NCBI GenBank assembly: GCA_963704905.1
Contig: CAVPHZ010000001.1
Location: 707,438-771,437 of the forward strand
DNA length: 64,000 bases
Source: Candidatus Chisholmbacteria bacterium
GTDB taxonomy: Bacteria; Patescibacteriota; Microgenomatia; UBA1400; Chisholmbacteraceae
Direction: 5' to 3'
Made by a program: the position numbers and the translations under genes. Within the stretch, counting starts at the first letter, position 1, and each line of letters starts with the position of its first letter. This document shows positions 2,269 to 57,540 of this stretch, in pieces. Below the pieces are notes generated by a model, which was given only the letters and a program-made list of their open reading frames with translations, had not been told where the DNA came from and made no database searches.

Positions 2269-2784
2269 ATGAAAGTTGAAACACTTGCTGATCGAGAGAA
2301 ACAGTATTGTTTAGCGGTTGATACACTTCTAGATAGGGATCAGGTGTTTTTGGTCGGCGGTCGTGATTTTGTTTGGAGTAATGAAAATACCTATGGTGCG
2401 TTATGTATTGTGCTTCTCCACTTTGGGCATGGTCGTAGAGAGATTGAGTTACCAGAGAGGTACGCACCGCTGACTACTGCTAGAAAGCATTCGTATTCTG
2501 AGGTTGGAATACAGTCGGTGCGACGAGCTGCACTTGAATATCTTGTTTGTCGAGAACATCTTCCCGGAAAAGTCGTTGAAGAGAGCGGTGGTACTTTTGA
2601 GGCAGTAACTAAAATATTACAGATTTTTTCAAGAGAGTATGACATGGACCTGTCTGATCAAGTGGGGGTTATTTTTACGAATCCAAGAAAAAAAGGTAAG
2701 GAAGTCGAACCTGAAGAAGTCCAGCTTATCTTCAGGGATGTTTTTGCGACACTTTATCCCGAATTACCGCAAAGTAAGGAGTAA
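2269..2784 (+). CDS. hypothetical protein
   Basis: Long ORF (the track gives 2230..2784 from a GTG); the first in-frame ATG is at 2269. No recognisable motif. Confidence 0.45.
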   Translation: MKVETLADREKQYCLAVDTLLDRDQVFLVGGRDFVWSNENTYGALCIVLLHFGHGRREIELPERYAPLTTARKHSYSEVGIQSVRRAALEYLVCREHLPGKVVEESGGTFEAVTKILQIFSREYDMDLSDQVGVIFTNPRKKGKEVEPEEVQLIFRDVFATLYPELPQSKE

Positions 2785-2842
2785 AGTTTCTATTCTCGGT
2801 GTCAACTTTATTGGGTTTGCATGAACGCGGTATACTGAATCT

Positions 2843-3187
2843 ATGCGACTGGTTTTTCGTCTGTTTGTAAATGCGTTTGCGGTCATGGTGGCAACCTATT
2901 TGTTGCCTGGTGTACATGTGGAGGGATACTTTGCTGCGTTTGTTGTGGTAATCGTGCTTGGGGTTCTTAACTCTTTTGTAAAACCAGTGCTCCATTTTTT
3001 TGCGTTGCCGATAACGATTGTCACGCTGGGTTTGTTTTCCCTGGTGATTAATGCTTTTGTGGTGATGTTGGCCGATTTCTTTGTGCGCGGGTTTGCTGTA
3101 GAAGGCTTCTGGTGGGCGTTAGGTTTTAGCTTACTACTTTCGTTGATATCTTCATTTTTGAACTCACTTTCCAATAAGGCTGACTAA
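2843..3187 (+). CDS. phage holin family protein (4-TMS, DUF360/YvlD-like)
   Basis: 114 aa with 4 TM segments and the ...ALPITIVTLGLFSLVINAFVV... signature typical of the superfamily IV holin / YvlD family. Confidence 0.8.
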   Translation: MRLVFRLFVNAFAVMVATYLLPGVHVEGYFAAFVVVIVLGVLNSFVKPVLHFFALPITIVTLGLFSLVINAFVVMLADFFVRGFAVEGFWWALGFSLLLSLISSFLNSLSNKAD

Positions 3188-3205
3188 GTTAATCTAACCT
3201 ATACT

Positions 3206-3685
3206 TCATTTTCGTGATTCTCTTGCCTCTGATGATGTGAGCATCCATAACTGTGGAGTGACGATAATGTATGGACTTCTTCCACTTACAATTCTGACAT
3301 ATTCACTCATATCCCACAGTGATGTAATAGCATCTGGAAATATTTCCTGTTGAAGTCGATCATCCAGGTGCGCTGGAGGCGCTTGGTCAATAAATTGCTG
3401 AACTCCACGCTCAACCATGAGAACAAAACGGAATGGTTTTACCAGTGCAAGTGGACCCTGTATGAGCGGTTTCTCGGATGGGTGAGGCCGAGAATTCATT
3501 CCCCAGTAGTGTTTTGTGGCTGTCATTGTCAATATATCACTGGCTAGAATATCAGGATGCCGAGTGAGTGCTTCTCTAAATGTACTTCGGTGTTGACGAG
3601 CAAATTTTTCAAGGTTATCTAAATACGGTTTCCATTCATGGCTGGGATAGTGAAGTGCGGTTAAGTTTTCTGCGGTGGTTACCAT
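3206..3685 (-). CDS. hypothetical protein
   Basis: 159-aa ORF whose start overlaps the stop of the upstream glycosyltransferase gene by 1 nt (translational coupling). No confident family assignment. Confidence 0.5.
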   Translation of the reverse strand: MVTTAENLTALHYPSHEWKPYLDNLEKFARQHRSTFREALTRHPDILASDILTMTATKHYWGMNSRPHPSEKPLIQGPLALVKPFRFVLMVERGVQQFIDQAPPAHLDDRLQQEIFPDAITSLWDMSEYVRIVSGRSPYIIVTPQLWMLTSSEARESRK

Positions 3686-7037: not shown

Positions 7038-8449
7038 TCAGGGCAAGCGTGAAGTTCGATCTAGGCTTCGTGGAGTGACGACGTAGTTGATGTATTGCTG
7101 CTTATCTTGAGTAGATGGGTTGAGAGCTTGAAATGTGTTTTCTAGCCGAAGAGTTTGAGTTATTTGATCCCAGCCGGAGAAGTGGCTTTGTTCAAGCGCT
7201 TCGATTGCATCAAGGTAATTTCTTCTACTCGCCCAGAATGAGAGCACCGGTCTTACATTTCCCATGGCGAAGCGGTTGAGATCGATCTGCATTCGCTGCG
7301 GAGTTCCTAGGAGCAGTGCAATACTGTCTGCAAAGCGGCTGGTGAGAACCGGTGCTACTTTGGCTGCCGACAGCGTCGATTACCAGACCAGGTCCATTTA
7401 CCATCATGAAATCATTTCCAAAGTGAATGAGGTCGCCTCCGAAGTAAGCGGTGAGTCTTTTTAGTGAATCTGGATCCTCAAGATTGAAGACTGACACAGC
7501 CAAGATCCTCGGCAGCTTTTTCTTGCACGTGGTATTTGGCAATGACGGCTACGTTGTGCATTTCCCAGCCAAGCTGTGAGAGCTCATCAGCAGTGTTGAG
7601 CCCCATGTTTCCGAAACCAATGATCACTGCTGGTGTGTTTGGTTGTATCAGGTGGTTGGGACCAATGACTTTTTCCAGTCCTTGCTTCACACAGGCGCGG
7701 TTGTCGATGCTGGCTGCTTTGGCGAGTGGGAGTTGGTGGGGTATCAGCTGAAACTCAGGATTTACGGCTATGAATTCAGCAAACCCACCACCGAGTTCTG
7801 AGATTGTTCTCCCTTGTTCGTCTACCGCTATCGCACCGAAACCTAGGGCAAAGCCGCGAATTTGTCCTGAATCTGCTCTAGATTGCCAAAAGCGCTGGCA
7901 GTGGTTTTGGTTGCCTGCTTGACACTGAGTACAGAGAGGTTGATTTACCGCTTTATCTGAGAAAAGCGGGTAGACCGCGTGGCCAGGAACAAGGATCTCG
8001 TGGCCAAGCGTCCAGGAGTGGAGAGCTTTCCCTGGGTGAGATAGTGCAGGTTGCGAGTATTTTGCAAGAGAACGTACTAATGTGTCCTGCAACTTGAGCA
8101 ATGTACTTTGGTTTGAAGTATCAGGAGCGAAGGCCAGGTTTGACAGCGCAAGGTCAAGATTCACGAGCGCTTTGTCAGTACCACAGACTCGGGCGGCTTC
8201 AATTGGCAGGACTTCCATCCCAAGAGCTTCAAGAGTCTTTGCATCAGGTTTTGGGGCATCGCCGTCGTATTTGGCCAGTGGAAGCCGTTTTGCCAGTGTT
8301 TGAGAAAACGCTAGGATTGTATCTACCTGCAGGAGACGGGAGTCAAGCGGGATCGATTCTATTCCAGGAATTGGCGTGAAGCGGACGGCGCGTTGAGTGG
8401 TTATTGGTCTTTCCGGGTTGTTAAGGTTGAGAACTTCTTGATGTCTCAT
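7038..8449 (-). pseudogene. Zn-dependent alcohol/threonine dehydrogenase family gene interrupted by two frameshifts
   Basis: Three consecutive overlapping ORFs (7478..8449, 7225..7542, 7038..7292) together encode CGTD, GHE, C-x2-C-x7-C structural-Zn motif, Rossmann VIIGFGNMG, and GGDLIHFGNDFMM...GLVIDAVG. GC is higher than in neighbouring genes. Confidence 0.55.
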
Positions 8450-8553
8450 TTAATTGTCCGTATTGTAGCAGAGCGTTTCTTGCTTCATATTAAATCTCTT
8501 TTTTTTGTCGAAAAAGCGGGAGCTAGTTACATATTAGCACTCTCTGCAACTGA

Positions 8554-8582
8554 TTGACATAATAGACATTCCATGGTATTAT
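8554..8582 (+). promoter_or_regulatory. near-consensus sigma70-type promoter (TTGACA-17-TATTAT)
   Basis: ttgaca at 8554-8559, 17-nt spacer, tattat at 8577-8582. Followed by an imperfect palindrome acattgttag...ctaacattgt (operator-like). Confidence 0.45.
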
Positions 8583-8599
8583 ATAGGACATTGTTAGGC

Positions 8600-9110
8600 T
8601 AATTGTCTAACATTGTAAAAGACCCTGTGAGCGTAAGCGAGCGGGGATTTTAAAAGGATTTAGAAGGCGAGACACGGAAGAATAGGAAAGGCCCTTCAAT
8701 TTGCCATTTAGGGCAGATTTCAGGGTAAAGGCAGCCGCAGGTCGGAGGCCAAACAAGCTTTGGAAAGGCGGTTTGGGCGGACTCTTTTTTTGTGGGTTTA
8801 ATCCTGAGTAGATTACCCATTCCCCAGATCATAATTTCCAAACAACCGTTAGCAACTTGATAGCAGGAATCTGGCTAGGAACATACGCCTTTCCACCCCC
8901 GAGAGGGGGGATCGTTTCTAGCCAGGTTCTTGCTATTAACCCTGTAAGCACTCCGTGTGTAAAGGGCAAGGCAAGAATACACCTCGAGGTGTTGACTAAG
9001 ACACTTGAGGAGTACCTGGGAGTAAGCAACCAGAGGGCAATCCGCGCTTACCTGGTTGGGACTTTCAGGACTAGCACTTTAAAAATCTGCGGAAAGTCTA
9101 TTAAAAAATA
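8600..9110 (+). ncRNA. candidate structured ncRNA; motifs reminiscent of bacterial RNase P RNA (type A)
   Basis: About 1.3 kb without a credible ORF, downstream of a strong promoter. Contains AGGAAAGGCCC (cf. P4 AGGAAAGUCCGG), UUAGGGCAG, GUGUAAAGGGCAAGGCAAGAAUACACC (cf. GUGAAAGGGUGCGGUAAGAGCGCACC), CCAGAGGGC...GCGCUUACC (cf. ACAGAANCCGGCUUA), and a CCCCCGAGAGGGGGG hairpin. Not verified by a covariance model. Confidence 0.35.
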
Positions 9111-9731
9111 ATCCTTTTCTCCTGGCTTCCGTCATGATTAATGATGTGATTCAGGGCAAACAACCTGGTGGATTTTTTGATACGTTGGTGATTTTCACTT
9201 GAGGGACCTAGAAGCTTGAATGCTTGGTTTTCATGAAAAATCAGTAAAACCTTCATGAAAATGTTATAGGTCAATGATTGGGTGGTGCTGTGGATATTTG
9301 GTAAGAGTGCTGATAGCCTGGAGTATTTTGGCTATATCAAGTGTCCAGAGTACCACTCAATCGGAAGGTGGAGTAACACAAAGAAAATGATTCATTTAGC
9401 CAGGTGAAGCCTGGGAAAGGAGAATAGTCGTGGAAAGTGATGGGACAAGTCTGAGGTGTTGCCAGTTCGGATGTTTTTTTCCCATGGCGAGTGGTCAGCC
9501 CTCTGGGCTTCACTTTCCTGGTCAATGGGGATGACCGTGCATTTATTGTTTGGGCTATTGTTTCAGCTAATGAGTCTTCTCAGTTCGTATCTGAGTTGAG
9601 AGGACAGAAGGGTGACGTTTGGCATTTGGTTCTTCTGGCGTTGGGGACGATTGTCAATCTGGTAATTACCATCATTGGGATTGTAGAGTTCGTGTCGATT
9701 TGGATCTAGTTCAACTGCTGATTCCGTTAGA

Positions 9732-10277
9732 GTGCCAGGAAGAACCTGGGAAGGAGAAAATGAAGTGTTTAACAATTTTGAAGTGCAGCTTATCCTGGGA
9801 GCCTTAGCAATTTCTGCGGTTTCCGTCGTCTTTTCAGCAATGTTTGCCAAAACGACTAAGAGTTACTTTTGGCTAAGAGTTGCTACCGGATTTGTTGGAT
9901 CGTGGGCATCGATAATCGGGGTGAGAACGGCAATTGCTTACTTCAATGTCGATTTGCCTGGGTTTTTACAGTATCTTCCGCTGCCGGTGACTTTTTTTGT
10001 GTGGTTCGCGTTTCTGATTCTGGTCGGTGTGGTTTTTGAAGATGAGGATGAGGAAGAAGAGGCTATTGAGTTTGATTCTAACCGGGAATTTGGTTGCAAT
10101 CGTCAATGTTATCTTTCTGCGATGTGCTTCTATGCGGCAACCACGCGGTACATTTCTTATCAACAGCCACAGCCGATGAGCTACGAGACAGTCAATGGAA
10201 CGGTCATTGAGCATTCCGGCATCGAGTCATGGGGACGGCGTTTCACACACGCTTTCAAATTGACGAGTTTAGGATGA
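9732..10277 (+). CDS. hypothetical membrane protein (start uncertain)
   Basis: ORF-track frame with TM segments and an acidic DEDEEEE stretch. It lies in a GC-elevated region full of short broken ORFs; a perfect SD plus ATG at 9760 is in another frame. Confidence 0.3.
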   Translation: MPGRTWEGENEVFNNFEVQLILGALAISAVSVVFSAMFAKTTKSYFWLRVATGFVGSWASIIGVRTAIAYFNVDLPGFLQYLPLPVTFFVWFAFLILVGVVFEDEDEEEEAIEFDSNREFGCNRQCYLSAMCFYAATTRYISYQQPQPMSYETVNGTVIEHSGIESWGRRFTHAFKLTSLG

Positions 10278-11095
10278 TTCCATGGCTTGCCTTCCTGCCA
10301 ATTGCCGATATGGATTCGAGCGTGCAGCTTCGGATCGGGTTACCGCAGGATGGAAACGGCAGTGTTCTATTGCAACCGGCTATTGGCGTGTACGTTGAGG
10401 AAGGAGTGGAAAATTACCACAAGTGCTGCTGGTATTGACATCTATGCTGGTACGAGGCTCGAGCTGAAACCGAACAGATTTATGGACTCGGTCAACGAGT
10501 GTGACCCGAGACGTCACCCGGGGTGCAGATGGACAGGTGAATGATTGGGGTTTTGCTGTCGGTTATGCTCCTCAGGAACTTGCTTTTCGTGAAGAGAGTC
10601 GGAGAATCCGGACTGCTAACGTCAGGGCTGGATGGAGCAAGCAGTTGTAACCCGATACAATCCTAGGAACAACACAGTGAACGTGCAGTTTCAGGATGAC
10701 GGAGCAGAGCTCCAAGGCTGGTCAGCTGGATGGTTTACAGCGAATCGCCGAGCTGTTCGGTGTCAATCGAAGTCTGTAGGGCGCGATCTTGCCTTTGTCT
10801 ACATCGAGGCACGGAGTTGAGGGAGCATGAAGCAATTGGAGGAAGTAAGGTAATGGTCTGACCACAAGCTGGTCGGGGTCACAGATGACCTATGATGTCA
10901 GCTTTGAGGTTGGATTCACAGAGATTCGAGTGAAGCTCCAGGACGGTGGGTACTGCGAAGGCGGTATCTACTTCAACGATTCAGGAGGTTACTATCCAGA
11001 ATATCAGCCATAAATACCGAATAATTAAGCCGATCTGTAGCTCGTCTCAAGACGAGTGAGTATCCAGTCACTGACTGGAAATCCAATAAAGGATA

Positions 11096-11461
11096 GTGAG
11101 ATACTATGAACGCGTCAGTAGTTGTACCAATGTTGTTTGGTCTGTTGGGACCATTTATGGGAGCTTGCATTATCGGCTCTCAGGACTTCGAGAAGAGAGT
11201 CCCAGTCCGATAAAGATTGGTATTTGCCTTATACTGGTGCTGGCATCGATTTTGGCGATCCAATTCAGCTACGCACTCGGTGAGGGTCAGATGACCTTCA
11301 TTTATGTGAGTGCGTATCTAACGCCGTTGATCGTGATTGCAACCGCGGTAGTCGAAGGTAAGAAGTTTCGCGACTTTGCCACTGCGGTGGTGATCTTCGG
11401 TTTGATCGTAGCCGCATCAATCCTATTTCTCCCCGGATTCCGATTGTTGGTTTTTGGGTAG
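11096..11461 (+). CDS. hypothetical small membrane protein
   Basis: 121-aa ORF with 3 hydrophobic segments. The start is ambiguous and support is weak. Confidence 0.3.
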   Translation: MRYYERVSSCTNVVWSVGTIYGSLHYRLSGLREESPSPIKIGICLILVLASILAIQFSYALGEGQMTFIYVSAYLTPLIVIATAVVEGKKFRDFATAVVIFGLIVAASILFLPGFRLLVFG

Positions 11462-11487
11462 GAAAAGAGGCCCAGCATGGCTCCGAG

Positions 11488-11715
11488 GTGGAGAAATCTA
11501 CCAGGGGGTCGGAGCCTCCAGAAAAAAAGGATGAAAAAGAAATGAAAATTCAAGATGTGATCAAGACTTTTCCTAGGTTGTTCCTCGGAGTGGCAATTGG
11601 AATTGCGGTTCAAACTGCCTCTAATTGGCCTCAGTCGACAGCGGTAGCTGTGGTTGTTACCTGTTTGCTCGTGGCAGTTACAGTCGGACATTATGTCCAT
11701 TACAACTTAGAGTAA
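11488..11715 (+). CDS. hypothetical small membrane protein
   Basis: 75 aa with an ATG start, a KE-rich N-terminus and two TM segments. Confidence 0.3.
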   Translation: MEKSTRGSEPPEKKDEKEMKIQDVIKTFPRLFLGVAIGIAVQTASNWPQSTAVAVVVTCLLVAVTVGHYVHYNLE

Positions 11716-12424
11716 GAAAACTCAATAGCCAGCTTTGGGCATACAATACAAGGCAAACTAAAGCTGCGAAAGCAGTGAGATAGAGTGCACAATGCACTCT
11801 CGGGAAGGTTCTCAGCAGCGAGAACGATAGACTTTCCAAAAAGATTTACTAAAAGACGCTGTCTCGTATGGGATGGTGAATGTTCGGAGAATTGGAGGAG
11901 ATGCATTACGCGCATCGGAGTTAGCCTCGGCTATCTTACCCTCCTTTCTTCACAACATTCATTTATCTCTACAGCGTCTTTTTTTTTGGCCAAAATGTGG
12001 TTGATACTTTTCTTTGCTTCTCCAAAGAAAGTATCCAAAGAAATGAAACCCCAGTGACAGTTCTGTCAGGAGCATGTTTCGCTCAATTTATACGATCTAA
12101 CTCCTCGGGATAAACCCTCGACGGACAGTCGATCGTTTCTAGTTGTTTTCGCTCAACATTCTCTTGAATAGCTCCTGTCAAAGGGGATTTGATTGAAATA
12201 GTACTTTAATTCTTTAGCACTATAGTGCTTTTATATTTTTGGTTTGTACTATTTTTGATCTATTCTGCATTCTTTATTTAAATATTCTCTGATTTCTTGA
12301 GAAAATGGGGACGGGGTGTGTGCAATATTTTCTTTATCCAGAGATATAGATAATTCCTATTACGTTCTATTTATATGTATATGTGATATTTCAGTGTTCC
12401 AGGCACATGTGACTTTAATCTCAT

Positions 12425-12453
12425 TTGCTGAGAAGGAAAAAACTTGTTATACT
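12425..12453 (+). promoter_or_regulatory. putative rpsA promoter (TTGCTG-17-TATACT)
   Basis: -35 at 12425-12430 and -10 at 12448-12453 within an AT-rich region, about 200 nt upstream of the S1 start. Confidence 0.35.
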
Positions 12454-12652
12454 ACTCACCATTCTATAGAAAGGTTGGTAAAGAAACTGTTTCAATATCT
12501 TCTTCCTACTACAACACTGCACTTGTCAGCTGTAAAGGATTCATCTCTCCATCGAAGTAGTCTTCAAATACTCCTTCGTCGAGATTTGTCCTTTTCGCAT
12601 GAAACTTCAGTGTTTCGTAACGAAACAAGATCTTGAACCCGTTTCACGATTT

Positions 12653-14068
12653 ATGCCAAAAAAGGCTACACGCAAAACAGCTCCTAAAAAGGTTTCGAAA
12701 AAACCTGCAAAGAAAAAAGTCACCAAAAAGACTTCGGCAAAGAAGAAATCGACACCACGAAAGTCCGTGGTGAAGAAAGTCCGTTCGACAGCTTCAAAAC
12801 GTTCGACACGCTATAAAACCTCAGTGCAGAAAGCTTCAGTGAAGGCAAGCTCAAAGAAAGAGCCTGATACCGCTGTTCCTGATGTTCCTGAGGAGAAAGT
12901 GACCAAGAGAATAGAAACTTCTAAAGGGGTCGAGCTTCGTGAAGCAGTTGCACTGGGCAAAAAGGGTAAAGAACCAAGCACCATGGAAGAGCTACTCAAT
13001 AAGACCGGTTACAAGCTCTGGGGTGTGAAGCGGGGAGAGTTGGTTGAAGGTCAGATCACTGATATTTCCAAACGGATGGCACTGATTGATATTGGGGCTA
13101 AGACTGAAGGATTGGTGGTCGATAAGGAATATGAGGCGGCGAAAGAGTTTATTCAAGAACTGGCGGTTGGAGATACCATCACCGTTTATGTATTGAGCCC
13201 GGAAAATGACCGGGGACAGATTCTCCTTTCACTCAAGAAAGCAGCAACCGATCGTACTTGGGATAAGTTCCATGAAGCACTCAAGACTAGCGAGATTGTT
13301 ACCGTGCGCGGCCTTGATGTGAATCGTGGCGGTGTGATTGTACGAGCGGATAGCTTACAAGGTTTTGTACCTTCTAGCCAATTTGGAAAGCAGTGGCTGG
13401 GGAAGATGGACGAGCTTGTGGAGCGGACGTTTCAAGTAAGGGTGATTGAAGTTGACAGAGAGAAGAACCGGCTTATCTTTTCCGAGAAACAGGTATCAGA
13501 AGCTGATGAGATCAAACAGCGGTCTGAAGCGCTGAAGAAGATCAAGGTGAACGAAGAGTATGCAGGCGTAGTTTCAGGGATCATGCCGTTTGGAGTGTTT
13601 GTTAGTGTGGATGTGCCCTTTTCTAAAGATGAAAAGTCAGCCAAAGTGGTTGGCAAAGTCGAAGGGTTGGTCCATATCAGCGAGATAAGTTGGGAGAAGG
13701 TTGATGATCCAAATAAGCACTTTCGGGTTGGGGAGAAGCTCAATGTACGAATCTTGGGTATTGATCAAAAATCAGGGAAATTAAATCTTTCAGTGAAGCG
13801 GCTTTCTGACGACCCATGGTCAAAACTTGAGAAGAAGTATCCTCCCGGAAAGAAAGTGAAGGGCAGTGTGTCACGCGTGGCTCCATTTGGTGCGTTTGTT
13901 ACACTAGAACCTGGGGTTGAGGGACTGCTCCATATTTCAAAAATTCCGGCTGGTGAAGAACCGGAGGTTGACTCGAAGATAGAGGTGTATGTTGAGCAGG
14001 TTGACCTTGATAATCGAAGGATGAGCTTGGGAATGGTATTGACAGAGGTTCCGGTTGCATACAAGTAA
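12653..14068 (+). CDS. rpsA: 30S ribosomal protein S1 (4-6 S1 domains) with lysine-rich N-terminal extension
   Basis: Repeated S1 OB-fold motifs (GELVEGQITDI..., GDTITVYVL..., YAGVVSGIMPFGVFVSV...GLVHISEISWEKV, GKKVKGSVSRVAPFGAFVTL...GLLHISKI). The N-terminal 80 aa are K/A/P/S/T-rich (MPKKATRKTAPKKVSKKPAKKKVTKK...). No SD, as is usual for rpsA. Confidence 0.85.
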   Translation: MPKKATRKTAPKKVSKKPAKKKVTKKTSAKKKSTPRKSVVKKVRSTASKRSTRYKTSVQKASVKASSKKEPDTAVPDVPEEKVTKRIETSKGVELREAVALGKKGKEPSTMEELLNKTGYKLWGVKRGELVEGQITDISKRMALIDIGAKTEGLVVDKEYEAAKEFIQELAVGDTITVYVLSPENDRGQILLSLKKAATDRTWDKFHEALKTSEIVTVRGLDVNRGGVIVRADSLQGFVPSSQFGKQWLGKMDELVERTFQVRVIEVDREKNRLIFSEKQVSEADEIKQRSEALKKIKVNEEYAGVVSGIMPFGVFVSVDVPFSKDEKSAKVVGKVEGLVHISEISWEKVDDPNKHFRVGEKLNVRILGIDQKSGKLNLSVKRLSDDPWSKLEKKYPPGKKVKGSVSRVAPFGAFVTLEPGVEGLLHISKIPAGEEPEVDSKIEVYVEQVDLDNRRMSLGMVLTEVPVAYK

Positions 14069-19082: not shown

Positions 19083-20064
19083 CTCTTCAGTAAGCAGTTC
19101 ACGCTCTGGTAATTGCTCAAATTTTTCCTAATAGATATTACGTTGACATGATCTCTGTCAACATGTTCCGTTAGTTTTCCTTTGTTTTCCACACGAGCAC
19201 ATATGTTATCCACAATCGTTCTAAAGTTCAATTCGTGTTGAGAATATAGTTCAATAGTAATTGCTACAGGTCTTGTATTTTTCACGGAATATTTCTTTAT
19301 AGGATTGACAGTAGTTGACAATTATGCTAATCTTTGGTCAATGAAGAAAGCAACCCGCGCATTTTCTAAGATGTTGCGTTTAATGCAACGAAAGAGGGAT
19401 CGAGTGAATCGTAGAAATAGGAGCAATGTTGAATTTAGTGCACATCAGCTTTCACACATTGCACGTATGCATCAAAAGTTAGTGGTAATGGGGAGGTAAT
19501 TTAACAGATGGTCTTTTTCTTTGTCACGTTACGCTTGGGCAGGCCGTGACGTGACGAAAAAGAAGAGCATTACTACCGCAGCACGGAGGCTCGAATAGCA
19601 ATGCTCTTTCTTTGAGTAACAGCTCGCGTCCGGACAGGTAACGCGAACAGTTGAATTTGACATTAGCATGGTGGTAAACACCTTGTCAACCTTTCGCATT
19701 TTGTTTGTGCGATTCCAGAGGTGAGTGTTTCCTGAGGAAACACGTCTTTTGTACACAAAGAGTACTCAAGCAAAAAAGAACATATACCTCTGAAGATGAA
19801 GATATTTAGCGATGAAAGTGCGAATGTTGCTTACACATTGAATAGTTCGGCATTTCCAGTGGTGGGTGATGTGTAGGGCAGGCGCATCACCCGCCTCTTG
19901 AGCTGGCGAATCATTTAAAGCTAATCAGTACTTGACAGTCACTCGTTTGGCTGTAAGAATACAAGAGATTCAATCCTCTCATTTTTTCTGAGCAGATATA
20001 GGCAAATTTTTTCGAACGCATGACTTACACACTATTTCATTTCTAATTAACCTTTTATTGCACT

Positions 20065-25315: not shown

Positions 25316-25391
25316 TGGTGGACCGTAGCGGGGTCGAACCGCTGACCTTTTGCATGCCATGCAAACGCTCTACCAACTGAGCTAACGGCCC
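25316..25391 (-). tRNA. tRNA-Ala (anticodon GGC), CCA encoded
   Basis: GGGCCGTTAGCTCAGTTGGTAGAGCGTTTGCATGGCATGCAAAAGGTCAGCGGTTCGACCCCGCTACGGTCCACCA. All four stems pair, the G3:U70 Ala identity pair is present, and the anticodon loop is AT-GGC-AT. Confidence 0.85.
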
Positions 25392-27326: not shown

Positions 27327-27455
27327 TGAGGTGGGTTTGGGTGTTATTGGTGGTGTTGTCGGTGGCGATGGTAATAGGGATAAGCGTGGATGATTGGTTG
27401 GTGGTGAAAGTTGGTTAATATTTTGAATGTCCCCTCTGCAAAATTTGTGGACGGG

Positions 27456-27527
27456 AGACCTAGCCGGGGTCGAACCGCTGACCTTTTGCATGCCATGCAA
27501 ACGCTCTACCAACTGAGCTAACGGCCC
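27456..27527 (-). pseudogene. degenerate copy of tRNA-Ala(GGC)
   Basis: The 5' 62 nt (acceptor 5' strand through T-loop) are identical to the gene at 25316..25391. The 3' part carries a 1-nt insertion in the T-stem and changes that abolish acceptor-stem pairing (…CCCCGGCTAGGTCTCCCG). About 25 nt upstream are also similar. Confidence 0.6.
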
Positions 27528-50069: not shown

Positions 50070-53000
50070 TTAATTTTGCGACGCTGTTGCCACTACATCA
50101 ATAATCCACCAGTTGAATTTGAGGTCGGCGGTGGCTGGGACCGGGGTTTCGACCCAGAATCCCTGACCTTCGTCGATGAGCGTGACTCCCAGCACTACCT
50201 GGGTCAGGCCGGCTGGGGTGATAAAGATTTTTGAGTTTTTGGTTACCGCTGATGTCTGCACATAGATGCTGCGCTGGTTGGCCGGAAGGGTGGCGCTACC
50301 AATGGAAGGAGCCTGGACCGTCGGTTGGGCTGGCGGTTGCTGTGGCTGACTGCTACCCGTGGCTTCGGTAGTTACGGCCAGGACAGCGGACTGGGTGGCG
50401 ATGGTGAGCTTGCCGGCAACCAGGTCACCAAATCCGGCTTTGGGTGCAGTGACTTCTTTGGCGGTTATTCTGCCTTCAATACTGATATCTCCCTGCGGGG
50501 TCAGGACGATTTTGCCGTTGAAGGCATCGATGTTCCCAGCTAGCGGGAGACTTTGGAGTTTGAGGTCCTGTGCTAGGGCATTGATGCTGGTATCGATATC
50601 ATCGATCTGGAGGAAACCGACGTTTAAGGTACCGAGAATGGTCGTGTCTTCAAGCACGGCTTTTCCGAGCAGTCTGAGGTCATGATCGATCTGCAATTCA
50701 TCTCCGACTAATGCAATGCCGTCGATGTTGAGGTCTCCACCCGTTGGTGTGCCTGAGCTGGTGGCTGGCTGGGCCAGATCGAGGAACTGTTCGAAGAGCA
50801 CCAGGTTGGCTTCCAAATCTGCAATTCTTTGGTCATGTTCTGAGAGCTGACCGCTTTGGGTGGCGACTTCCGTTTGAAGTTCATCAGTAGTGGTTGCGAG
50901 ACCAGCGATATCGCTAGAATGTGTTTCGAGAATGTCTTCAATTGTCTGGATTTCATCAGTCTGATCAGTTGATTGCTGGGCGAGATTGTCGAGATCCTGC
51001 AATGCCTGGTCAAGGTTCAGTTCAATTTGTTCCTGCTGAGCGCTGATATCGCCAAAGGTGTTTATGGCGAACAAGACATCTGATTCGTGCCAGCCAGGAT
51101 TAATGAAGAGCATGATTTGGTCAATACCGCTTCCGGCAGTCCAGGATTCCATGGCTTGTCCGATGACGTGGCCGGAATCTATGGCTTTAGTCGCTTGGCC
51201 ATTTTCTGAGGATGTTAGGAAGTCACCAGCGAGGATGGATGGTGAGTCTGGGTCAACATGGACCGGTACTCGTCCGGCAAGGGCAACGAGGTAGGAGTTT
51301 TCTTCTCCGCCATCACCAAGAATAAGCCCTGGCTGGGTTGAAATGATGCCGATGACGGTTGGGTCGTATGGCTCTCGTGCTTTGTGGATTCGAACGGTTT
51401 CGTTTGGATCGATTTTAACAACATCTCCTTCTTCGAGTTCTTCGGTTGAAACGAAGTACTCAGCAAGGTCGAAGCCTGAACCGGTGTTATGGTTGTCGCT
51501 GTCGTCCATGAAGCTGATGAGGTTCCAGGTCGAGCTGTTTAAGGCGAAGGTGATGACGTCTCCATCTGCCAAGGTGATGTCGGTTGAGCCGCAGTTGATG
51601 CTGGTGGTTGGCGTGCCGTCGCACTCGATGGTGGAGTTGGCGTCATTGACCTCGACGATGATGATCTGTCCGTCGGTGCCGTCGGTGAAGTTGGTGTAGG
51701 CGGTGCCGGAGGTGTTGGCGGTTATCCAGTGGGAGCCTGCTGACACGTCCGGAGTCGCGCTATCTGCCGTGAGCGTTTGCTGAGCATCAAGTGAAAAGCC
51801 GCCTTGGACGATTGCTGTTCCTTCTGCCGAGAGATCAAAGACAATGTCGCCGGAGTTGTAGGTCTTTAAGGTTAGGTTGTTGCTTTCTGAAGCTTCGCCG
51901 ACGTCAATGGTGAAGGGTGCGTCGGTTTTGATGTTTGAACTGGTCTGATTGGTAAAGACCAAATCATAAGCCATGGAAACATCCCCGCTGGCGGTGAAGG
52001 CGTGGGGGACGGCTGAGGTGATGCCGGTTTGGCTAACAGTGAATACGTCTGATCCATTGTTATAGACGGCGAACAGGTTTCCGGTGACGGTGGCATTGCC
52101 GTTGACATCGATGACGAACAAGTCTGCATCGGTGGTGTCTGCTGATCCCGGATTCCAAGCAAACCGTCCCAAGGCTCCATTGAGTGACCCGTCTGCGAGT
52201 CCTGTAGAAGTGCTTTCGACATACATGGCATTCCCGGTTGTAAGGGCATCTACGGAAAGTTGAATCCCTTGGGCTGTTGTTAAGGCATCGGCTTGGATAT
52301 CGAGGACATCGGCGTCAATCTGGGCAGCGGTGATTTGCATAGCGATTTGGTCAGTATCGTCGGTATCAAGGAGGAAGCCTGTTACTGCGTCTGTTGAGCC
52401 AACGTCGACTTCAAAAAGTGCAGTTGTTGAGGTATTCCCAACGACCACGCCACCGTCCCCCTCGATTCTCATGCGCTCGTTCGTAGTGGCCTCCCCACCC
52501 GTAAAGAGACGGATATCGTCACCAGAACCTGCTGCAATGAGCGATAAGCCGTTGAGATTGGCGGAAGAACTGACATACCCTCGGTTCCCGTAGACGTTTG
52601 CCGTAGTAGTTGATCCTCCGACGCCGAAGCTTGCGATGTTATTTCCACCCCCATCGTTCATGGCTTGGAGGTTTGCAAAACCATTTGCGTGGGTGTTTTC
52701 TACTAAGGTTCCGATTGCTCCACCGTCGAGACTATCCCCGATATGCAGATAGGAGAGCGGAGTTGATTCATTTGTGGCTTCTGATCCGAGCTGGAAAGCT
52801 CCATATCCCGCACTAGCCTGTTTCAATGCAAATTGAAGTACGGAGCCGTTGGTATCATACCCCCTTAACCAATATGCGTTTTCGTCAGAATTGTCAGTGA
52901 ACTCGAGGTCGAGAAGGGAAGTGTTTCCGGCAAGGTCAGCGTCCGAATTATCAATCTTCATGACCGTTCCGGTGTCGAGTGTGCTTGCCAGAAAAACGTT

Positions 53001-55643
53001 ATCTTCTGCGTAGATTCCATAGTCCCAGTTAGTGCCTTGCTGGTAGATGGCGTATTCGGTAGAGGTGGTTTGTGCGGCAAGATCCTCGATGTGAAGCCCG
53101 TAGGTAGTTGATCCGGCTACTGAGGTCAGATTACTGAAATCTAGATTGAGCCCGGTGAGCGCGCCGGTTTGGGTCTCGGCTGAGTCAAAGGCGATGTCTA
53201 CTAAAGTTCCAGTCTCAAAGACATCGGCGCCGATGTCGATAGGTGTGGCTGAATCAGCACCGAAGAGGATATCGACGTTTCCAGACATATTGATTCCTGT
53301 ATCCCATCCAGATCCGATGTTGATCGCTGTTTCTGAAGCGCTGCTGCCGGCGGTTCCGTCGATGTTGATAGCATAGAGTGTTTCATCTCCAGATGGAGTG
53401 TTGACTGTGTCGAGATTGAGATGGAGGAGTGATTCAGTGACTGCGCCGGCACTGTTGCCAAATTCTCCGGCGATGTAGAGCGCGTCAACTCCATCAGTGA
53501 CAATACCGGTTGTGTTACCGGTGAGGTTGATGACTGCTGCATCGACGGTTGGGATGGTGTTGTTGGTTGTGTTTTCCAGCTCAAACTGCGTATCACCAGC
53601 GTCTCCGTATCTCAGACTCAAGTAGTCTGAGATGGATGATTTAGTGATGACTCCGCCTGAACTTGAGAATGCTCCAGCACTTCCACCACCCTGATCGGTT
53701 GAGGCATCCATGAAGGCAATGAGTTTCCAGTCTGTTCCATCGTACTGCCAGGTGGTGACGTCTCCGGTAGCCGTGACAATATCCGTTGTTCCTCCACTTA
53801 AACCTGAAGAGGTGACGTCGAAGGTGATATCTCCATTGCTTTCGATCACGACAAATTGTCCTGGAGCAAGAGAGTCCGTGCCGGCGTCAAAGTCTGTGAT
53901 GGTGAAACTGGTTGAGCCGGTGATCCAGTTGGTTCCACCTGAAATATCTGGGGTTGCGTCCGCATCTGCGAGCGTTTGCTGTGCGCCAAATCCTATACCA
54001 GCTTCCGCCAGGATTCCGATATCGAGATTTGTTCCTTGTTGATAGAGGCCATACTCAGTTGAATTTGTTTGGCTGGCCGGGTCGTTGATGTGTATGCCGT
54101 ACAGATTGTTTGTGCCATCGGGAGTAAGGTTAGTAAGGTCGATGTCTATACCGAGAATGTCACCGCCTGATTGAGATGTCGCCCCTCCCCAGTCGATGTT
54201 GAGGATGTCACCACTGGTATTGTTGATGTCTAGGTCCAATGCTGTCTGGTCAACATCGTCTTGATCAATGGTGAGGGCGATGAGGTCTGCGGTTCCGGTG
54301 TCGATTTCTACGAGACCGGCTGGAGCGATAACATCTGCACCGATTCCGAGTTGACCGGTAGTGGTGATGGTGAGGAAAGCATTGGTTCCCGGTGTAGTGC
54401 CGTCTCCGATTTGGAAGAAATCGTCGTCGTCCCCGCCAGCATCTTCATCGACACCAATCCAGAAATCGGTATCCGTGGCGGTGGCGACGTCAAAGATGAT
54501 GCTGGGGTCGGCGTCTTGAAGCATGACGTTGCCTCCCGATGTTCCTCCTGGAGTGAGGAGGATGTTTCCGTAGTTGTAGGTGTTTAGCGTGAGATTGTTA
54601 CTTTCAAAACTCTCTCCGACGTCAATGGTGAACGGTCCGTATGACTCGATTTGGCTGGCAGTTTGGTTAGTAAAGATCGCGTCATAGGAGAAGGAGACAT
54701 CTCCGGCAGCGGTAAAGGAGTGGGGGACTGCAGATTCTATCTGGGTTTGGGAAACGGTGAAGACATCTGAGCCGTTATCATAGACCGCAAACAGATTCCC
54801 CGTGACTGTTGCATTCCCATTGACATCAATCACAAACAGGTCAGCATCAGTGGTATCTGCTGATCCCGGGTTCCAGGCAAATCTTCCCAGGGCTCCATTG
54901 AGGGATCCATCTGCAAGTCCGGTTGAGGTTGATTCCACATAGAGGGCATTACCGGTGGTTAAACCATCTGCTGACATGGCAAATAAGCCTGAGGTTTGGA
55001 TGGCATCGGCAGTGATATCGATGAGGTTTTCAGTGGTCAGGGCTCCGGTCCAGTCAATGTCAAACAGACCGCCTCTGGTTCCGGCGCCATTGAGGTCGAA
55101 GGTGGCGACGGTGCCGGTGGTGTTGTTGTCATTGACCTCAATCATGCTGGCGGTACGGGCACTGGCCGTATTGCCGATGACCATGGCTTGGGAATCAACC
55201 GCAGTTGCACCCAAGTCGATGTTGATGACGTCTCCAGTTGCTGCTCCGGCGCCGACGTTGACATCGATAAGGTTGCTCGTCCAGGCTTGTGCTCCAGTGG
55301 TGATGTCGATGAGGTTTTCGTTGGTGAACGCTCCGGAGGTATCGATATCAAAGATCCCTCCTCTTGTTGATGAGCTGTCAATATCAACGGTGGCGACCGT
55401 GCCGGTGGTGTTGTTCTCGGTGATCTGTACGGCTGATTGGGTTCTGGCTCCGGCTGAGGTCGACATGACTAACCCTTGAGCGCCCGTAGCTGCGGCGCCC
55501 ATTGAAATGTTGATTGCGTCACCGGTGTCGGCAATGTTGCCGAAGTTGAGGTCAACTAAGTTTCCTGATGAAGCAGCTGGTGGAGGTGGTGATATCGATG
55601 ATATTTGAGGCAGGACCACCAGTGATATTGAAGTCCATGACAT
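50070..55643 (-). CDS. C-terminal 1857 aa of a giant repetitive T/G/D/N/A-rich beta-solenoid-like surface protein
   Basis: The first 390 aa are identical to an internal segment of 55552..63993, and its start overlaps that ORF by 92 nt through a 1-nt indel. It has repeated ...NLIDITTGAQAWTSN... and GDxINIDLGATAV units, and a C-terminal module (DLAEYFVSTEELEEGDVVKIDPNETVRIHKAREPYDPTVIGIIS...GRVPVHV) followed by a coiled coil and tail. Confidence 0.7.
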   Translation of the reverse strand: MSWTSISLVVLPQISSISPPPPAASSGNLVDLNFGNIADTGDAINISMGAAATGAQGLVMSTSAGARTQSAVQITENNTTGTVATVDIDSSSTRGGIFDIDTSGAFTNENLIDITTGAQAWTSNLIDVNVGAGAATGDVINIDLGATAVDSQAMVIGNTASARTASMIEVNDNNTTGTVATFDLNGAGTRGGLFDIDWTGALTTENLIDITADAIQTSGLFAMSADGLTTGNALYVESTSTGLADGSLNGALGRFAWNPGSADTTDADLFVIDVNGNATVTGNLFAVYDNGSDVFTVSQTQIESAVPHSFTAAGDVSFSYDAIFTNQTASQIESYGPFTIDVGESFESNNLTLNTYNYGNILLTPGGTSGGNVMLQDADPSIIFDVATATDTDFWIGVDEDAGGDDDDFFQIGDGTTPGTNAFLTITTTGQLGIGADVIAPAGLVEIDTGTADLIALTIDQDDVDQTALDLDINNTSGDILNIDWGGATSQSGGDILGIDIDLTNLTPDGTNNLYGIHINDPASQTNSTEYGLYQQGTNLDIGILAEAGIGFGAQQTLADADATPDISGGTNWITGSTSFTITDFDAGTDSLAPGQFVVIESNGDITFDVTSSGLSGGTTDIVTATGDVTTWQYDGTDWKLIAFMDASTDQGGGSAGAFSSSGGVITKSSISDYLSLRYGDAGDTQFELENTTNNTIPTVDAAVINLTGNTTGIVTDGVDALYIAGEFGNSAGAVTESLLHLNLDTVNTPSGDETLYAINIDGTAGSSASETAINIGSGWDTGINMSGNVDILFGADSATPIDIGADVFETGTLVDIAFDSAETQTGALTGLNLDFSNLTSVAGSTTYGLHIEDLAAQTTSTEYAIYQQGTNWDYGIYAEDNVFLASTLDTGTVMKIDNSDADLAGNTSLLDLEFTDNSDENAYWLRGYDTNGSVLQFALKQASAGYGAFQLGSEATNESTPLSYLHIGDSLDGGAIGTLVENTHANGFANLQAMNDGGGNNIASFGVGGSTTTANVYGNRGYVSSSANLNGLSLIAAGSGDDIRLFTGGEATTNERMRIEGDGGVVVGNTSTTALFEVDVGSTDAVTGFLLDTDDTDQIAMQITAAQIDADVLDIQADALTTAQGIQLSVDALTTGNAMYVESTSTGLADGSLNGALGRFAWNPGSADTTDADLFVIDVNGNATVTGNLFAVYNNGSDVFTVSQTGITSAVPHAFTASGDVSMAYDLVFTNQTSSNIKTDAPFTIDVGEASESNNLTLKTYNSGDIVFDLSAEGTAIVQGGFSLDAQQTLTADSATPDVSAGSHWITANTSGTAYTNFTDGTDGQIIIVEVNDANSTIECDGTPTTSINCGSTDITLADGDVITFALNSSTWNLISFMDDSDNHNTGSGFDLAEYFVSTEELEEGDVVKIDPNETVRIHKAREPYDPTVIGIISTQPGLILGDGGEENSYLVALAGRVPVHVDPDSPSILAGDFLTSSENGQATKAIDSGHVIGQAMESWTAGSGIDQIMLFINPGWHESDVLFAINTFGDISAQQEQIELNLDQALQDLDNLAQQSTDQTDEIQTIEDILETHSSDIAGLATTTDELQTEVATQSGQLSEHDQRIADLEANLVLFEQFLDLAQPATSSGTPTGGDLNIDGIALVGDELQIDHDLRLLGKAVLEDTTILGTLNVGFLQIDDIDTSINALAQDLKLQSLPLAGNIDAFNGKIVLTPQGDISIEGRITAKEVTAPKAGFGDLVAGKLTIATQSAVLAVTTEATGSSQPQQPPAQPTVQAPSIGSATLPANQRSIYVQTSAVTKNSKIFITPAGLTQVVLGVTLIDEGQGFWVETPVPATADLKFNWWIIDVVATASQN

Positions 55644-57540
55644 TGGCTGAAGCGTTTAGGGATCCGGAGGAATTAATCTGGAAGATGGCGGCATCGTCGG
55701 AGGCAGAACCGGTGCTAGCGGTGGTGATATCAATTAATGCGTCGGTTCTTGCCCCACCTGCGTCAGCGACAACAAAGGCGCCACCGGCGAGGTTGCTTGA
55801 ACCCATGCTGATATTGTGAATGTCTCCGGTTGAAGCAGCGGCGCCGACATTGACGTCAAATATGTTTCCAGTCCAAGCTTGGGCGCCGGTGGTGATGTCG
55901 AATATATTTCCGGTCCAGGCTGCAGAAGTGTCGATGTCCATGAGCCAGCCGGCAGTGTTGGAGATGGCTGCGTTACTGACAACAAAGTTTTGCAGGGCTA
56001 CGGCGTTGGCCGGTACAGCGACGTTGAAGATGTCTCCGGTTTGAGCGGCGTTCCCAGGATTGATGTCAATGTAGTTCCCGGTTGCGGCTTGGGCTCCCGA
56101 GGTGATATCGATGACGTTTGAAGCAAAGGTTCCCGTGGTGTTGATGTCATAGATGTTGGCAAGTGAATTCAGGTTTCCTGATGCATTGATTTGGAAAATC
56201 GCTGCGTTGTCAGAGGCGGAACCGGTACTGGCGGTGGTGATGTCGATGATGGCGTCAGTTCTGGCGCCGCCGGCAGCTGAGACGACGAAGGCTCCTCCAG
56301 CGAGGTTGTTGGTTCCCATGTTGACGTTTAGAGCATCACCGGTTGAGGCTGCGGCTCCGACGTTGATATCAATGAGGTTACTGGTCCAGGCTTGAGCTCC
56401 GGTGGTAATATCGATTAAGTGCTCGGTTCCGAAAGCTCCGGTGGTGTCGATGTCAAAGAGACTTCCTCTTGTGCCACCAATGTTAAAGTCAAATGTGGGT
56501 ACTGTGCCGCTAGTATTATTGTCGTTAATCTCGACCATGCTGGCTGTTCTGATGCTTGAGGAGTTGCTAATGACCAAGGCTTGGGCGTTGACTGCGGTTG
56601 CACCTAGGTCAAGGTTGATGAGGTCTCCGGTAGCCGCAACAGCACCGATGTTCAGATCGAGAAGATTGGATGTGAAGGCTGCGGAGGCGGTGATATCAAT
56701 TAGATGTTCGGTTCCCAAGGCTCCAGTTAGGTTGGCGTCTAGGAGCCCTCCTCTGGTTTCAGCAGAATCCCATTGAATGGTGGGGACGGTTCCGGTGGTG
56801 TTGTTTTCATTGATGTCTATGAGGGCTGTGGTTCTTACCCCTGAAACACTGGTCAAATCAAGGGCCTCACCGGCGACTGCGGAAGAGATCGCTGCTCCGG
56901 TGTCCCATCCGGAGCCGATATTGATGGCTGTTTCACTGGCTCCGGTTCCGGTAATACCATCCAGATTTATTCCATAGAACAAGTCCCCAGATCCGCCTCC
57001 AGCGATAGGGTCAAAGTTCACATGAAGTCCTGAGATTGTTCCATCCGCGACGATATTTCCAGCCTCCATGATAAGGTACAACCCATCAACTCCATCGGTA
57101 ACGATTCCAGTGTTGGTTGCGCCAGAAGAGAGATCAATAGAAATTGCATCGGCGGTGGGAATGACTTGGTTGGTTGAGCTGTCGATTTCAAACTGAATAT
57201 CTGCTGCATCACCATATTGGAGCCGGAGTCTATCAGCAGCGGTGAATTTATCAATGATGCCTCCACTGGTGGTAAATGGCTGACTGGCCCCGGTGGCCCA
57301 GCCGCAGTTGGTGAGGGCCGGATCACAGAGCAGATCATCTCCCCAGTACAAGGATCCGGTGGCCTGTCCCGGTCCGGTACCGAAGTTGATGACGTTGTTG
57401 GCAGAGGCATCCACATTCAAGCCAATGGTGGTGCCATTGACCGAGAGTCCGGTATTGAACAGGGCATCGTCTTCCACATAGAGGCCATAGTCCCAACCGG
57501 TGCCAGCCTGATAGATACCATATTCATCGCCGTCTTTTGC
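54450..57540. repeat. segmental duplication copy 1 (about 3.1 kb) within the giant gene
   Basis: Near-identical to 57950..60740 (offset 3502 bp, then 3198 bp after a 304-bp indel); e.g. ORF 54996..55370 = 58498..58872 and 57018..57416 = 60216..60614. Confidence 0.7.

Follow-up and report, generated by a model that had tools for sequence, protein, structure and literature searches.

The 64,000-nt stretch of contig CAVPHZ010000001.1 of a Candidatus Chisholmbacteria bacterium that we analysed (positions 707,438 to 771,437 of the forward strand; hereafter the window) contains what sequence comparison indicates to be a non-coding, highly structured and clade-specific RNA of ~0.83 kb, spanning 8589 to ~9415 on the + strand. 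This RNA is the head of a ~3.4-kb cassette, which is flanked by a divergently transcribed gene on one side and by rpsA on the other. Genomes of the candidate phyla radiation (CPR, Patescibacteria) are small and densely packed, and a conserved, mostly non-coding cassette of more than 3 kb therefore stands out. Large structured RNAs of unclear role are rare in bacteria and have repeatedly been a source of new biology; the one described here is backed by covariation, an exactly conserved 22-mer and a testable pseudoknot, and it sits beside rpsA at the 23S-5S position. The evidence comes from three to six lineages and is sequence only. A sequence-only reading of positions 8450 to 9730 had favoured a type A RNase P RNA of ~450 nt, with another large structured RNA as fallback. 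All strings that it quoted are present in the sequence, and it is the fallback that was borne out, as the RNA is conserved and its helices covary.

Homologs from at least three other lineages (L125, L124 and L121) were recovered from the contigs of the closest S1 proteins, after broader scans had given none. The rpsA gene (12599–14068), searched against genome contigs, matched metagenome-assembled genomes (MAGs) of Patescibacteria/Microgenomates at up to 62% identity, and the 110 rpsA loci from the genome and metagenome scans held nothing resembling window 8450–12600. A protein search with S1 yielded closer relatives at 67–77% identity, including Candidatus Chisholmbacteria MAGs. In their loci L122–124 (contig MHCM01000003), L125–127 (MHCL01000017) and L121, a 2.8–3.6-kb stretch lies directly upstream of rpsA, on the rpsA strand and after a divergent gene, with nothing but small open reading frames (ORFs) that lack Pfam matches. 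Within these stretches, nhmmer aligned window 8522–8896 with L125 3241–3524 (E = 6e-5), 8654–8797 with L124 2582–2713 (E = 3e-4) and 8851–8942 with L125 3720–3823 (E = 2e-3), and the relatives matched each other in the same region at 2e-14 (L124–L125), 2e-23 (L125–L121) and 2e-13 (L124–L121). Profiles of the RNA modules, run against 128 loci, found these lineages only, the profile of the hairpin with U7 at E = 1e-11 to 1e-13. The 22-mer AAGCTTTGGAAAGGCGGTTTGG is identical in the window and L122–124 although the S1 proteins are 68% identical. In L124, a 758-nt "gene" annotated by JGI with a 20-residue product (2473–3230) lies exactly over the conserved RNA; it may denote an RNA or be an odd feature call. 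The alignments share the promoter block, the 5′ hairpin, the hairpin with U7, the long hairpin, the block AGCACyUU..AUCUG and the 3′ long hairpin, which lie in the window among the following parts (Shine–Dalgarno is abbreviated SD):

8533–8553, + strand: block ATTAGCACTCT.. upstream of the promoter, conserved with it in the alignments
8554–8582, + strand: promoter TTGACA-17-TATTAT with TG-extended −10 (conserved; sequence match)
8588–8617, + strand: 5′-terminal hairpin, the palindrome ACATTGTTAG..CTAACATTGT (pair probability 0.99)
8623–8726, + strand: segment largely specific to the source genome (predicted helices; alignments)
8623–8646, + strand: GUAA-loop hairpin (predicted helix)
8685–8692, + strand: copy 1 of GGAAAGGC (conserved)
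8691–8726, + strand: local hairpin holding AGGAAAGGCCC and UUAGGGCAG (pair probability 0.96–0.98; gapped in L125 and L124)
8740–8791, + strand: hairpin followed by U7 (8785–8791), conserved and attenuator- or terminator-like
8755–8776, + strand: 22-mer AAGCTTTGGAAAGGCGGTTTGG, which includes copy 2 of GGAAAGGC (8762–8769)
8857–8939, + strand: long hairpin, in the window a perfect 26-bp helix (8857–8882/8914–8939), conserved and covarying
8887–8894, + strand: GCCUUUCC, invariant, in the apical loop of the long hairpin and complementary to both copies of GGAAAGGC
8896–8909, + strand: mini-hairpin CCCCC-GAGA-GGGGG in the apical loop (structure kept, sequence not)
8940–9272, + strand: variable middle part with hairpins at 8982–9010, 9015–9069 and 9205–9272
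9072–9091, + strand: AGCACyUU..AUCUG, the sole block of the middle part that aligns with L125, L121 and L124
9151–9178, + strand: weak hairpin with U6 (predicted helix)
9276–9362, + strand: 3′ long hairpin with a 14+13+5-bp helix, conserved and covarying
9353–9359, + strand: CCACUCA, 3′ arm of the 3′ long hairpin, complementary to the downstream SD-like GGUGGAG
9367–9373, + strand: SD-like GGUGGAG followed by AUG (9387), a conserved arrangement

The region is structured beyond chance, and specifically on the + strand. Folding of 8800–9115 gave z = −6.6 on the + strand vs −0.8 on the − strand. A sliding scan with 160-nt windows reached −5.8 (8800–8959) and −6.3 (9280–9439) on the + strand only, with the − strand near 0; none of 373 same-size windows elsewhere in the 64 kb fell below −5, and two fell below −4 on the + strand. 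The minimum free energy (MFE) structure and the ensemble of 8589–9480 both consist of a chain of ~12 local hairpins, mostly with pair probabilities above 0.9. G-U pairs account for 23 of the 178 predicted pairs and hence for the strand asymmetry of folding.

Homologs with compensatory helix changes were found across three to five lineages. Changes were counted on three sequences per helix, L125 and L121 being close to each other. In the long hairpin, whose helix measures 20–26 bp across lineages, 33 pairs were compared between the window, L125 and L124; 90.9% of the cells are paired and in 10 pairs both partners changed, vs 4.5 in shuffles (0/500) and 0–2 with the partners slid. The 3′ long hairpin, of 36 bp (window, L125, L121; 39 pairs, 94.8% of cells paired), contains 8 compensatory changes, vs 3.0 in shuffles (0/500) and 0–1 when slid. 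The 12 pairs of the 5′ hairpin are kept in L125 and L121 with three compensatory and three one-sided changes. Many kept pairs in the covarying helices are G-U pairs, which are valid on the + strand only. Even with three sequences for each helix, this is the pattern that a selected RNA structure would be expected to give.

The promoter call of the earlier reading held up. On both strands of the 64-kb window, TTGACA-17-TATTAT is the sole site that matches the sigma-70 consensus in at least 11 of 12 positions, and it is kept in the homologs: the block ATTAGCACTCTnTnCnAnTGATTGACA..CATGGTA is common to the window and L125, and the −10 element TGGTAGAAT to the window and L121. The transcript is predicted to start at ~8589. 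The palindrome just downstream, described earlier as operator-like, is present; it behaves as the 5′ hairpin of the RNA, and the operator role was dropped because the stem sequence varies between lineages while the pairing is kept. Its motif ACAWTGTTA is without enrichment.

These data bear directly on the possibility that the region is non-functional DNA decaying at a rearrangement breakpoint, with hairpins that are inverted duplications and a fortuitous promoter. Such decay would fit a neighbouring dehydrogenase-like gene that is broken into three frames, a small membrane-protein ORF that looks frameshifted, ORFs that are orphans, and a cassette missing from the related loci L114 and L115. 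It would not lead one to expect a promoter and helices that persist, with compensatory changes, between genomes at 67–75% S1 protein identity, nor a fold made specific to the + strand by G-U pairs, and we regard it as very improbable.

Downstream of the promoter, the hairpin with U7 is shaped like an intrinsic terminator or attenuator, and termination is predicted there. In the window, the hairpin 8740–8783 (−16 kcal/mol) lies directly before U7, and hairpins of −12 to −17 kcal/mol occur just before the promoter-proximal U7 in the window, L125, L124 and L121, whereas their outer stem sequences vary among the four lineages. In each case a stable hairpin thus ends 0–2 nt before a U-tract of at least six residues, 3′ of the promoter. 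The same part of the RNA carries a motif with a potential distant partner. GGARAGGC occurs twice and GCCUUUCC once in each of the window, L125 and L124, and all three are missing together in L121. The GGARAGGC copies sit upstream of or inside the U7 hairpin, GCCUUUCC always occupies the long hairpin's apical loop, and none of the three 8-mers occurs again on the + strand of the 64-kb window. GGAAAGGC is complementary to this hairpin loop 120–385 nt downstream, which suggests a long-range GGAAAGGC:GCCUUUCC pairing and a candidate pseudoknot. This pairing is hard to prove because the conservation of its sequence leaves almost no covariation. At the other end of the RNA, an SD-like GGUGGGUGAG is followed by AUG within 5–13 nt in every lineage, and an alternative hairpin between CCACUCA and this SD forms in isolation in L125, L121 and L124 when the 5′ arm is withheld.

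Taken as a unit, these parts are consistent with a cis-acting attenuator and 5′ leader of the ~3.4-kb cassette, a reading to which we give an even chance. Most transcripts would stop at the hairpin + U7 attenuator and yield an RNA of ~200 nt, whereas read-through transcripts would fold into the core of long helices, in which the loop GCCUUUCC may pair with one of the two copies of GGAAAGGC. The two helices of at least 20 bp would be natural substrates of RNase III and could be processed, and the 3′ long hairpin would determine if CCACUCA is available for masking the first small ORF's SD-like GGUGG(G)UGAG. Through attenuation, RNase III helices and SD masking, the RNA would thus control elongation, stability and translation of the cassette in cis.

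Several points weigh against this leader function. The start and ends of the RNA and termination at U7 are all predictions. In the thermodynamic ensemble, the 3′ long hairpin is favoured over the anti-SD hairpin by more than 20 kcal/mol, so that a switch would need a trigger, e.g., a binding factor or cleavage. The conserved AUG opens ORFs of 3, 6, 57 and 78 codons that are unrelated, which weakens the translational-control part. The GGAAAGGC:GCCUUUCC pairing, with one one-sided change only (GGAGAGGC in L125), is unproven, and the covariation counts reflect few independent events, as they come from 3–4 lineages of which two are close relatives. Finally, the RNA exceeds its "cargo" in conservation and could equally be a stand-alone non-coding RNA (ncRNA).

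This difference in conservation makes one or more stand-alone, trans-acting ncRNAs, with the downstream small ORFs incidental, a serious rival, which we consider possible and would put forward tentatively. Its product could be a ~200-nt small RNA ending at U7 or a 0.65–0.85-kb RNA acting as a ribonucleoprotein (RNP) scaffold, protein sponge or ribozyme. The RNA modules are the sole cassette parts that can still be aligned between the window and its relatives, the ORFs having diverged past detection, the terminator-like hairpin with U7 is kept, and a conserved core with lineage-specific helix insertions and a candidate pseudoknot is typical of functional structured RNAs. A stand-alone RNA does not account for the fact that the RNA always precedes small ORFs with strong SDs on the same strand and is lost together with them, that its 3′ end has a conserved SD-like element and AUG, and that no strong terminator separates RNA and ORFs in the window.

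The RNase P assignment had been based on short strings, none of which is diagnostic. This matters because RNase P RNAs of CPR bacteria are hard to find: according to Lui et al. 2021 (PMC8172020), the RF00010 thresholds had to be lowered for 10 of 35 complete CPR genomes, and helices were either absent or extended. The strings are:

8684–8694, + strand: AGGAAAGGCCC, proposed as the 5′ strand of P4
8708–8716, + strand: TTAGGGCAG, RNase P-like string
8896–8910, + strand: CCCCCGAGAGGGGGG, RNase P-like string
8957–8983, + strand: GTGTAAAGGGCAAGGCAAGAATACACC, RNase P-like string
9031–9053, + strand: CCAGAGGGCAATCCGCGCTTACC, proposed as conserved region (CR) V

At the Rfam gathering score, the 64-kb window contained no RNase P and only three tRNAs; the covariance-model check proposed with the earlier reading matched no Rfam family, including RNase P, tmRNA, 6S and group I/II introns. 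Because CPR RNase P RNAs escape Rfam cut-offs (PMC8172020), we repeated the searches at E ≤ 10 with permissive filters on 8350–9850 (1.5 kb) and 8585–9110 (526 nt), again with nothing RNase P-related; the best match was a chance match of a miRNA hairpin to the 26-bp helix. The homologous loci L121, L124 and L125 gave nothing in Rfam at either the gathering score or E ≤ 10. Four of the five motifs are not conserved in the homologs, and only GGAAAGGC is kept. AGGAAAGGCCC and UUAGGGCAG are arms and loop of one local hairpin, an insertion that the homologs lack, and the strings read as "J12/13-P13", "CR-II/III" and "CR-V" lie in the variable middle part and are not conserved. No pair of CR-I (GAGGAAAGUCC) and CR-V (ACAGAAnnnGGCUUA) that would make P4 was found in any locus, and neither copy of GGAAAGGC can make a canonical P4 with the proposed CR-V. 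P1–P3 are absent as well: neither MFE nor ensemble contains a terminal helix and none can be formed, P1 being precluded by a 5′ end that is a self-contained, covarying hairpin. The locus is also missing at its position in L114 and L115, which does not suit an essential gene.

RNase P RNA was therefore rejected on every testable mark of membership. What could still be argued is a highly diverged RNase P RNA below the Rfam thresholds, as documented for other CPR bacteria (PMC8172020), given that GGAAAGGC is conserved and resembles the CR-I core GGAAAGUCC and that the Rfam search found no rnpB elsewhere in the 64-kb window. Such an RNA would have to go without a model match at E ≤ 10 on 526 nt, 1.5 kb or three homologous loci, without any kept equivalent of CR-II, CR-III, CR-IV or CR-V, and without P1. 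It would also have to pair GGAAAGGC with a loop 120–385 nt downstream in a register that differs from P4, dispense with GGAAAGGC altogether in the shortest homolog, L121, and be absent from two close relatives, a pattern that an essential gene could show only after relocation. We consider this scarcely credible.

Further identities were rejected in turn. For tmRNA, ARAGORN gave three tRNA-Ala genes only, and no covariance model matched for 6S, signal recognition particle RNA, riboswitches, OLE, GOLLD, ROOL, HEARO, raiA or group I/II introns. A retron msr-msd would have a long hairpin, which is present, but the six frames of 8450–12600 contain neither a reverse transcriptase nor any Pfam domain. 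A decayed rRNA operon was considered because 23S-5S precedes rpsA in most Microgenomates; the locus has no similarity to 23S or 5S. There is no second copy of the region in the window that would indicate a repeat or miniature inverted-repeat transposable element. A phage origin or defence island found no match in a phage database, viral contigs, PHROGs or PADLOC, two 17-mer matches being due to chance. The tetranucleotide composition of 8001–12000 is typical for the genome, which makes a recent foreign origin or an assembly chimera unlikely. The long-range repeats 9080–9101/11827–11848 and 8560–8572/9091–9103 and the 13-mer at 8616/11850 are at chance level.

In most Microgenomates, 23S and 5S rRNA genes immediately precede rpsA in the same orientation, and radA follows it; the Chisholmbacteria-like clade has the cassette of RNA and small ORFs at the 23S-5S position, or nothing. 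In the Microgenomates loci (L006, L007, L013, L018–L046 and others), the 23S gene often carries group I introns or LAGLIDADG genes. L114 is syntenic with the window (holin-like gene, phosphoribosyltransferase (PRTase) gene, rpsA, 51-aa ORF, 289-aa ORF, radA, rho, M23 peptidase), and its PRTase gene is 140 bp from rpsA; in L115, a single 211-aa ORF separates the two. Compared with L114, the window has ~5.3 kb extra (6904 to ~12200), made up of a split dehydrogenase-like gene and a unit of ~3.4–4 kb. RNA and small-ORF array occur together in the window, L124, L125 and L121, and both are missing in L114 and L115. As the cassette exists in L122–127 and L121, it is ancestral to the clade, and L114 and L115 have lost it. 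For the neighbouring 323-aa ORF, there is one distant homolog, P0002, which showed no synteny in the first comparison and shares its contig with L114. The dehydrogenase-like gene (7065–8449, − strand) matches P0002 in three frames (residues 22–340, 304–353 and 369–450) and is either a frameshifted pseudogene or affected by indel errors; an intact homolog lies ~20 kb from rpsA on the contig of the closest relative.

At its far end, the cassette is closed by a second structured element:

11851–12195, + strand: conserved structured element just upstream of rpsA
11851–11982, + strand: composite hairpin of ~130 nt (z = −6.2)
11979–11987, + strand: U9 after the composite hairpin
12003–12035, + strand: 13-bp hairpin, 5 of 13 pairs compensatory across five lineages
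after 12035 to ~12195, + strand: conserved CCAAAGAA..CCCCAGUGA
12446–12480, + strand: beyond the element, conserved rpsA promoter/SD block TGnTATACT..TTCTAnAGAAAGG

This element occurs in six lineages (nhmmer: L124, E = 7e-25; L121, 1e-17; L119, 5e-12; also L125 and L116) and has no Rfam match. Its 13-bp hairpin has a 3′ arm, AAAGAAAGU, that resembles the SD block of rpsA. After the rpsA promoter/SD block, the window has ~170 extra structured nt (z of about −4.3 on both strands); rpsA probably starts at ATG 12653, the 489-aa ORF from 12599 being probably too long.

The arrangement raises the possibility that the RNA is a promoter-proximal element for processive antitermination or read-through, with rpsA as its target, that replaces the upstream rRNA operon. 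This would give meaning to the 23S-5S genes that in most relatives immediately precede rpsA in the same orientation, to the hairpin and U-tract signals at 8785, 9173, 9465 and 11979 between the strong promoter and rpsA, and to the 3′ element kept beside the rpsA promoter in six lineages. We nonetheless consider it improbable: rpsA retains its own conserved promoter and SD block, L114 and L115 manage without the cassette, and the Rfam searches of 8350–9850 and 8585–9110 found no boxA-like or put/EAR-like match.

Among known systems, type A RNase P RNA (RF00010) shares with the new RNA a length of several hundred nt, its own promoter, lineage-specific helix insertions and a conserved GGAAAG-containing motif in a long-range pairing, and CPR versions are divergent (PMC8172020). 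The new RNA differs in having no covariance-model signal, no CR-II to CR-V and no P1–P4 architecture, in a motif that pairs in another register, in a dispensable locus and in the small ORFs that follow. Long structured 5′ leaders and attenuators include the RNase III-processed rpsO-pnp and rnc leaders and phage early leaders. They have in common with it a strong promoter, a promoter-proximal hairpin with U-tract, RNase III-type helices of at least 20 bp and an SD-masking alternative hairpin; the new RNA is much longer (0.5–0.85 kb), its downstream genes are not conserved, and no ligand or protein partner is known. OLE, GOLLD, ROOL, raiA and HEARO, all in Rfam, are of the same size class, likewise with a helical core, variable insertions and a narrow range, whereas the RNA found here matches no model, is built mostly from long hairpins in series instead of multi-way junctions and is physically linked to rpsA and an array of small ORFs. 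Type I toxin-antitoxin mRNAs (e.g., hok/sok and tisB) also have a highly folded, translationally inert leader before ORFs for small hydrophobic peptides, and ORFs overlap in the window too; here, there is no conserved toxin ORF and no convincing antisense promoter, and the leader is several times longer. A literature search on structured RNAs of Chisholmbacteria or Patescibacteria found nothing relevant. Leaders, attenuators and large structured RNAs are thus known kinds, whereas the family (no Rfam 15 match), the architecture and the genomic setting are new. A further, doubtful extension would make this RNA the first representative of a novel class of large (0.5–0.85 kb) structured RNAs in CPR bacteria, with the GGAAAGGC:GCCUUUCC pseudoknot fold, a function beyond leader control, and 11851–12195 as another new motif belonging to that system. 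If true, it could be a ribozyme, an RNP scaffold or a regulator that connects ribosomal protein S1 with the former rRNA locus.

Only small ORFs occur in 8450–9730, as reported earlier, but the end given for this ORF-poor region was too short: the stretch, with small orphan ORFs only, extends from 8450 to ~12600. The longest ORFs within 8450–9730 have 84 aa (8857–9111, + strand) and 72 aa (9491–9709, + strand), and one of 95 aa on the − strand (9563–9850) overlaps its right edge. None of these three matched Pfam, PHROGs or PADLOC, and no homolog of 9491–9709 was found. A six-frame Pfam scan of 8450–12600 revealed no domain and no remnant, and codon-usage scores of the small ORFs of 8450–9730, a weakly discriminating test, were not coding-like. 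Hidden or decayed protein genes were rejected on these grounds. Behind the RNA, a start module is duplicated:

9400–9432, + strand: module copy 1, a CCAGG-N5-CCUGG hairpin, GGGAAAGGAGAA and GUG (9430)
9430–9534, + strand: 34-codon ORF started by copy 1
9735–9767, + strand: module copy 2
9765–10277, + strand: orphan 170-aa membrane-protein ORF (P0003) with GUG start, behind copy 2

These are two copies of the module in the window vs none expected. The ORFs 9430–9534 and 9491–9709 overlap. P0003 has no Pfam match and, among 1.84 billion representative proteins, matched itself alone; the small membrane-protein ORFs of the cassette are not conserved among lineages. At 11108–11461 (+ strand), a small protein with four transmembrane (TM) segments appears to be split by one frameshift, with MNASVVVPMLFGLLGPFMG.. 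in one frame and ..IGICLILVLASILAIQF.. in another. L121 contains tandem paralogous small TM ORFs at 500–2530, each behind GAGAGGAGGATGTRGA-N-ATG. A zinc-ribbon ORF of ~65 aa (MKGT..CPxC..HHxC) exists in L121 and L125 (4140–4400) and is lacking in the window. CCWGG is about sevenfold enriched, with 13 sites in 8922–9957 (~1 kb) vs 2.6 per kb window-wide, and many of these sites fall in hairpin arms.

Elsewhere in the window, tRNA-Ala(GGC) at 27453–27527 (− strand) is a copy of 25316–25391, identical over ~63 nt and then broken in the 3′ acceptor strand. The two copies flank a Na+/H+ exchanger gene, and the same tRNA/exchanger/tRNA layout exists in the relative L001. The ORF-free stretch 19322–20046 upstream of rho folds with z = −4.6 on the − strand and −3.7 on the + strand; in relatives, it contains only calls of ORFs of 50–65 aa. 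On the − strand of 50070–63993, two giant ORFs of 1857 aa and more than 2813 aa (the latter running off the window) contain tandem repeats of ~1.3 kb, and the G+C content and tetranucleotide usage of this region differ from the rest of the window.

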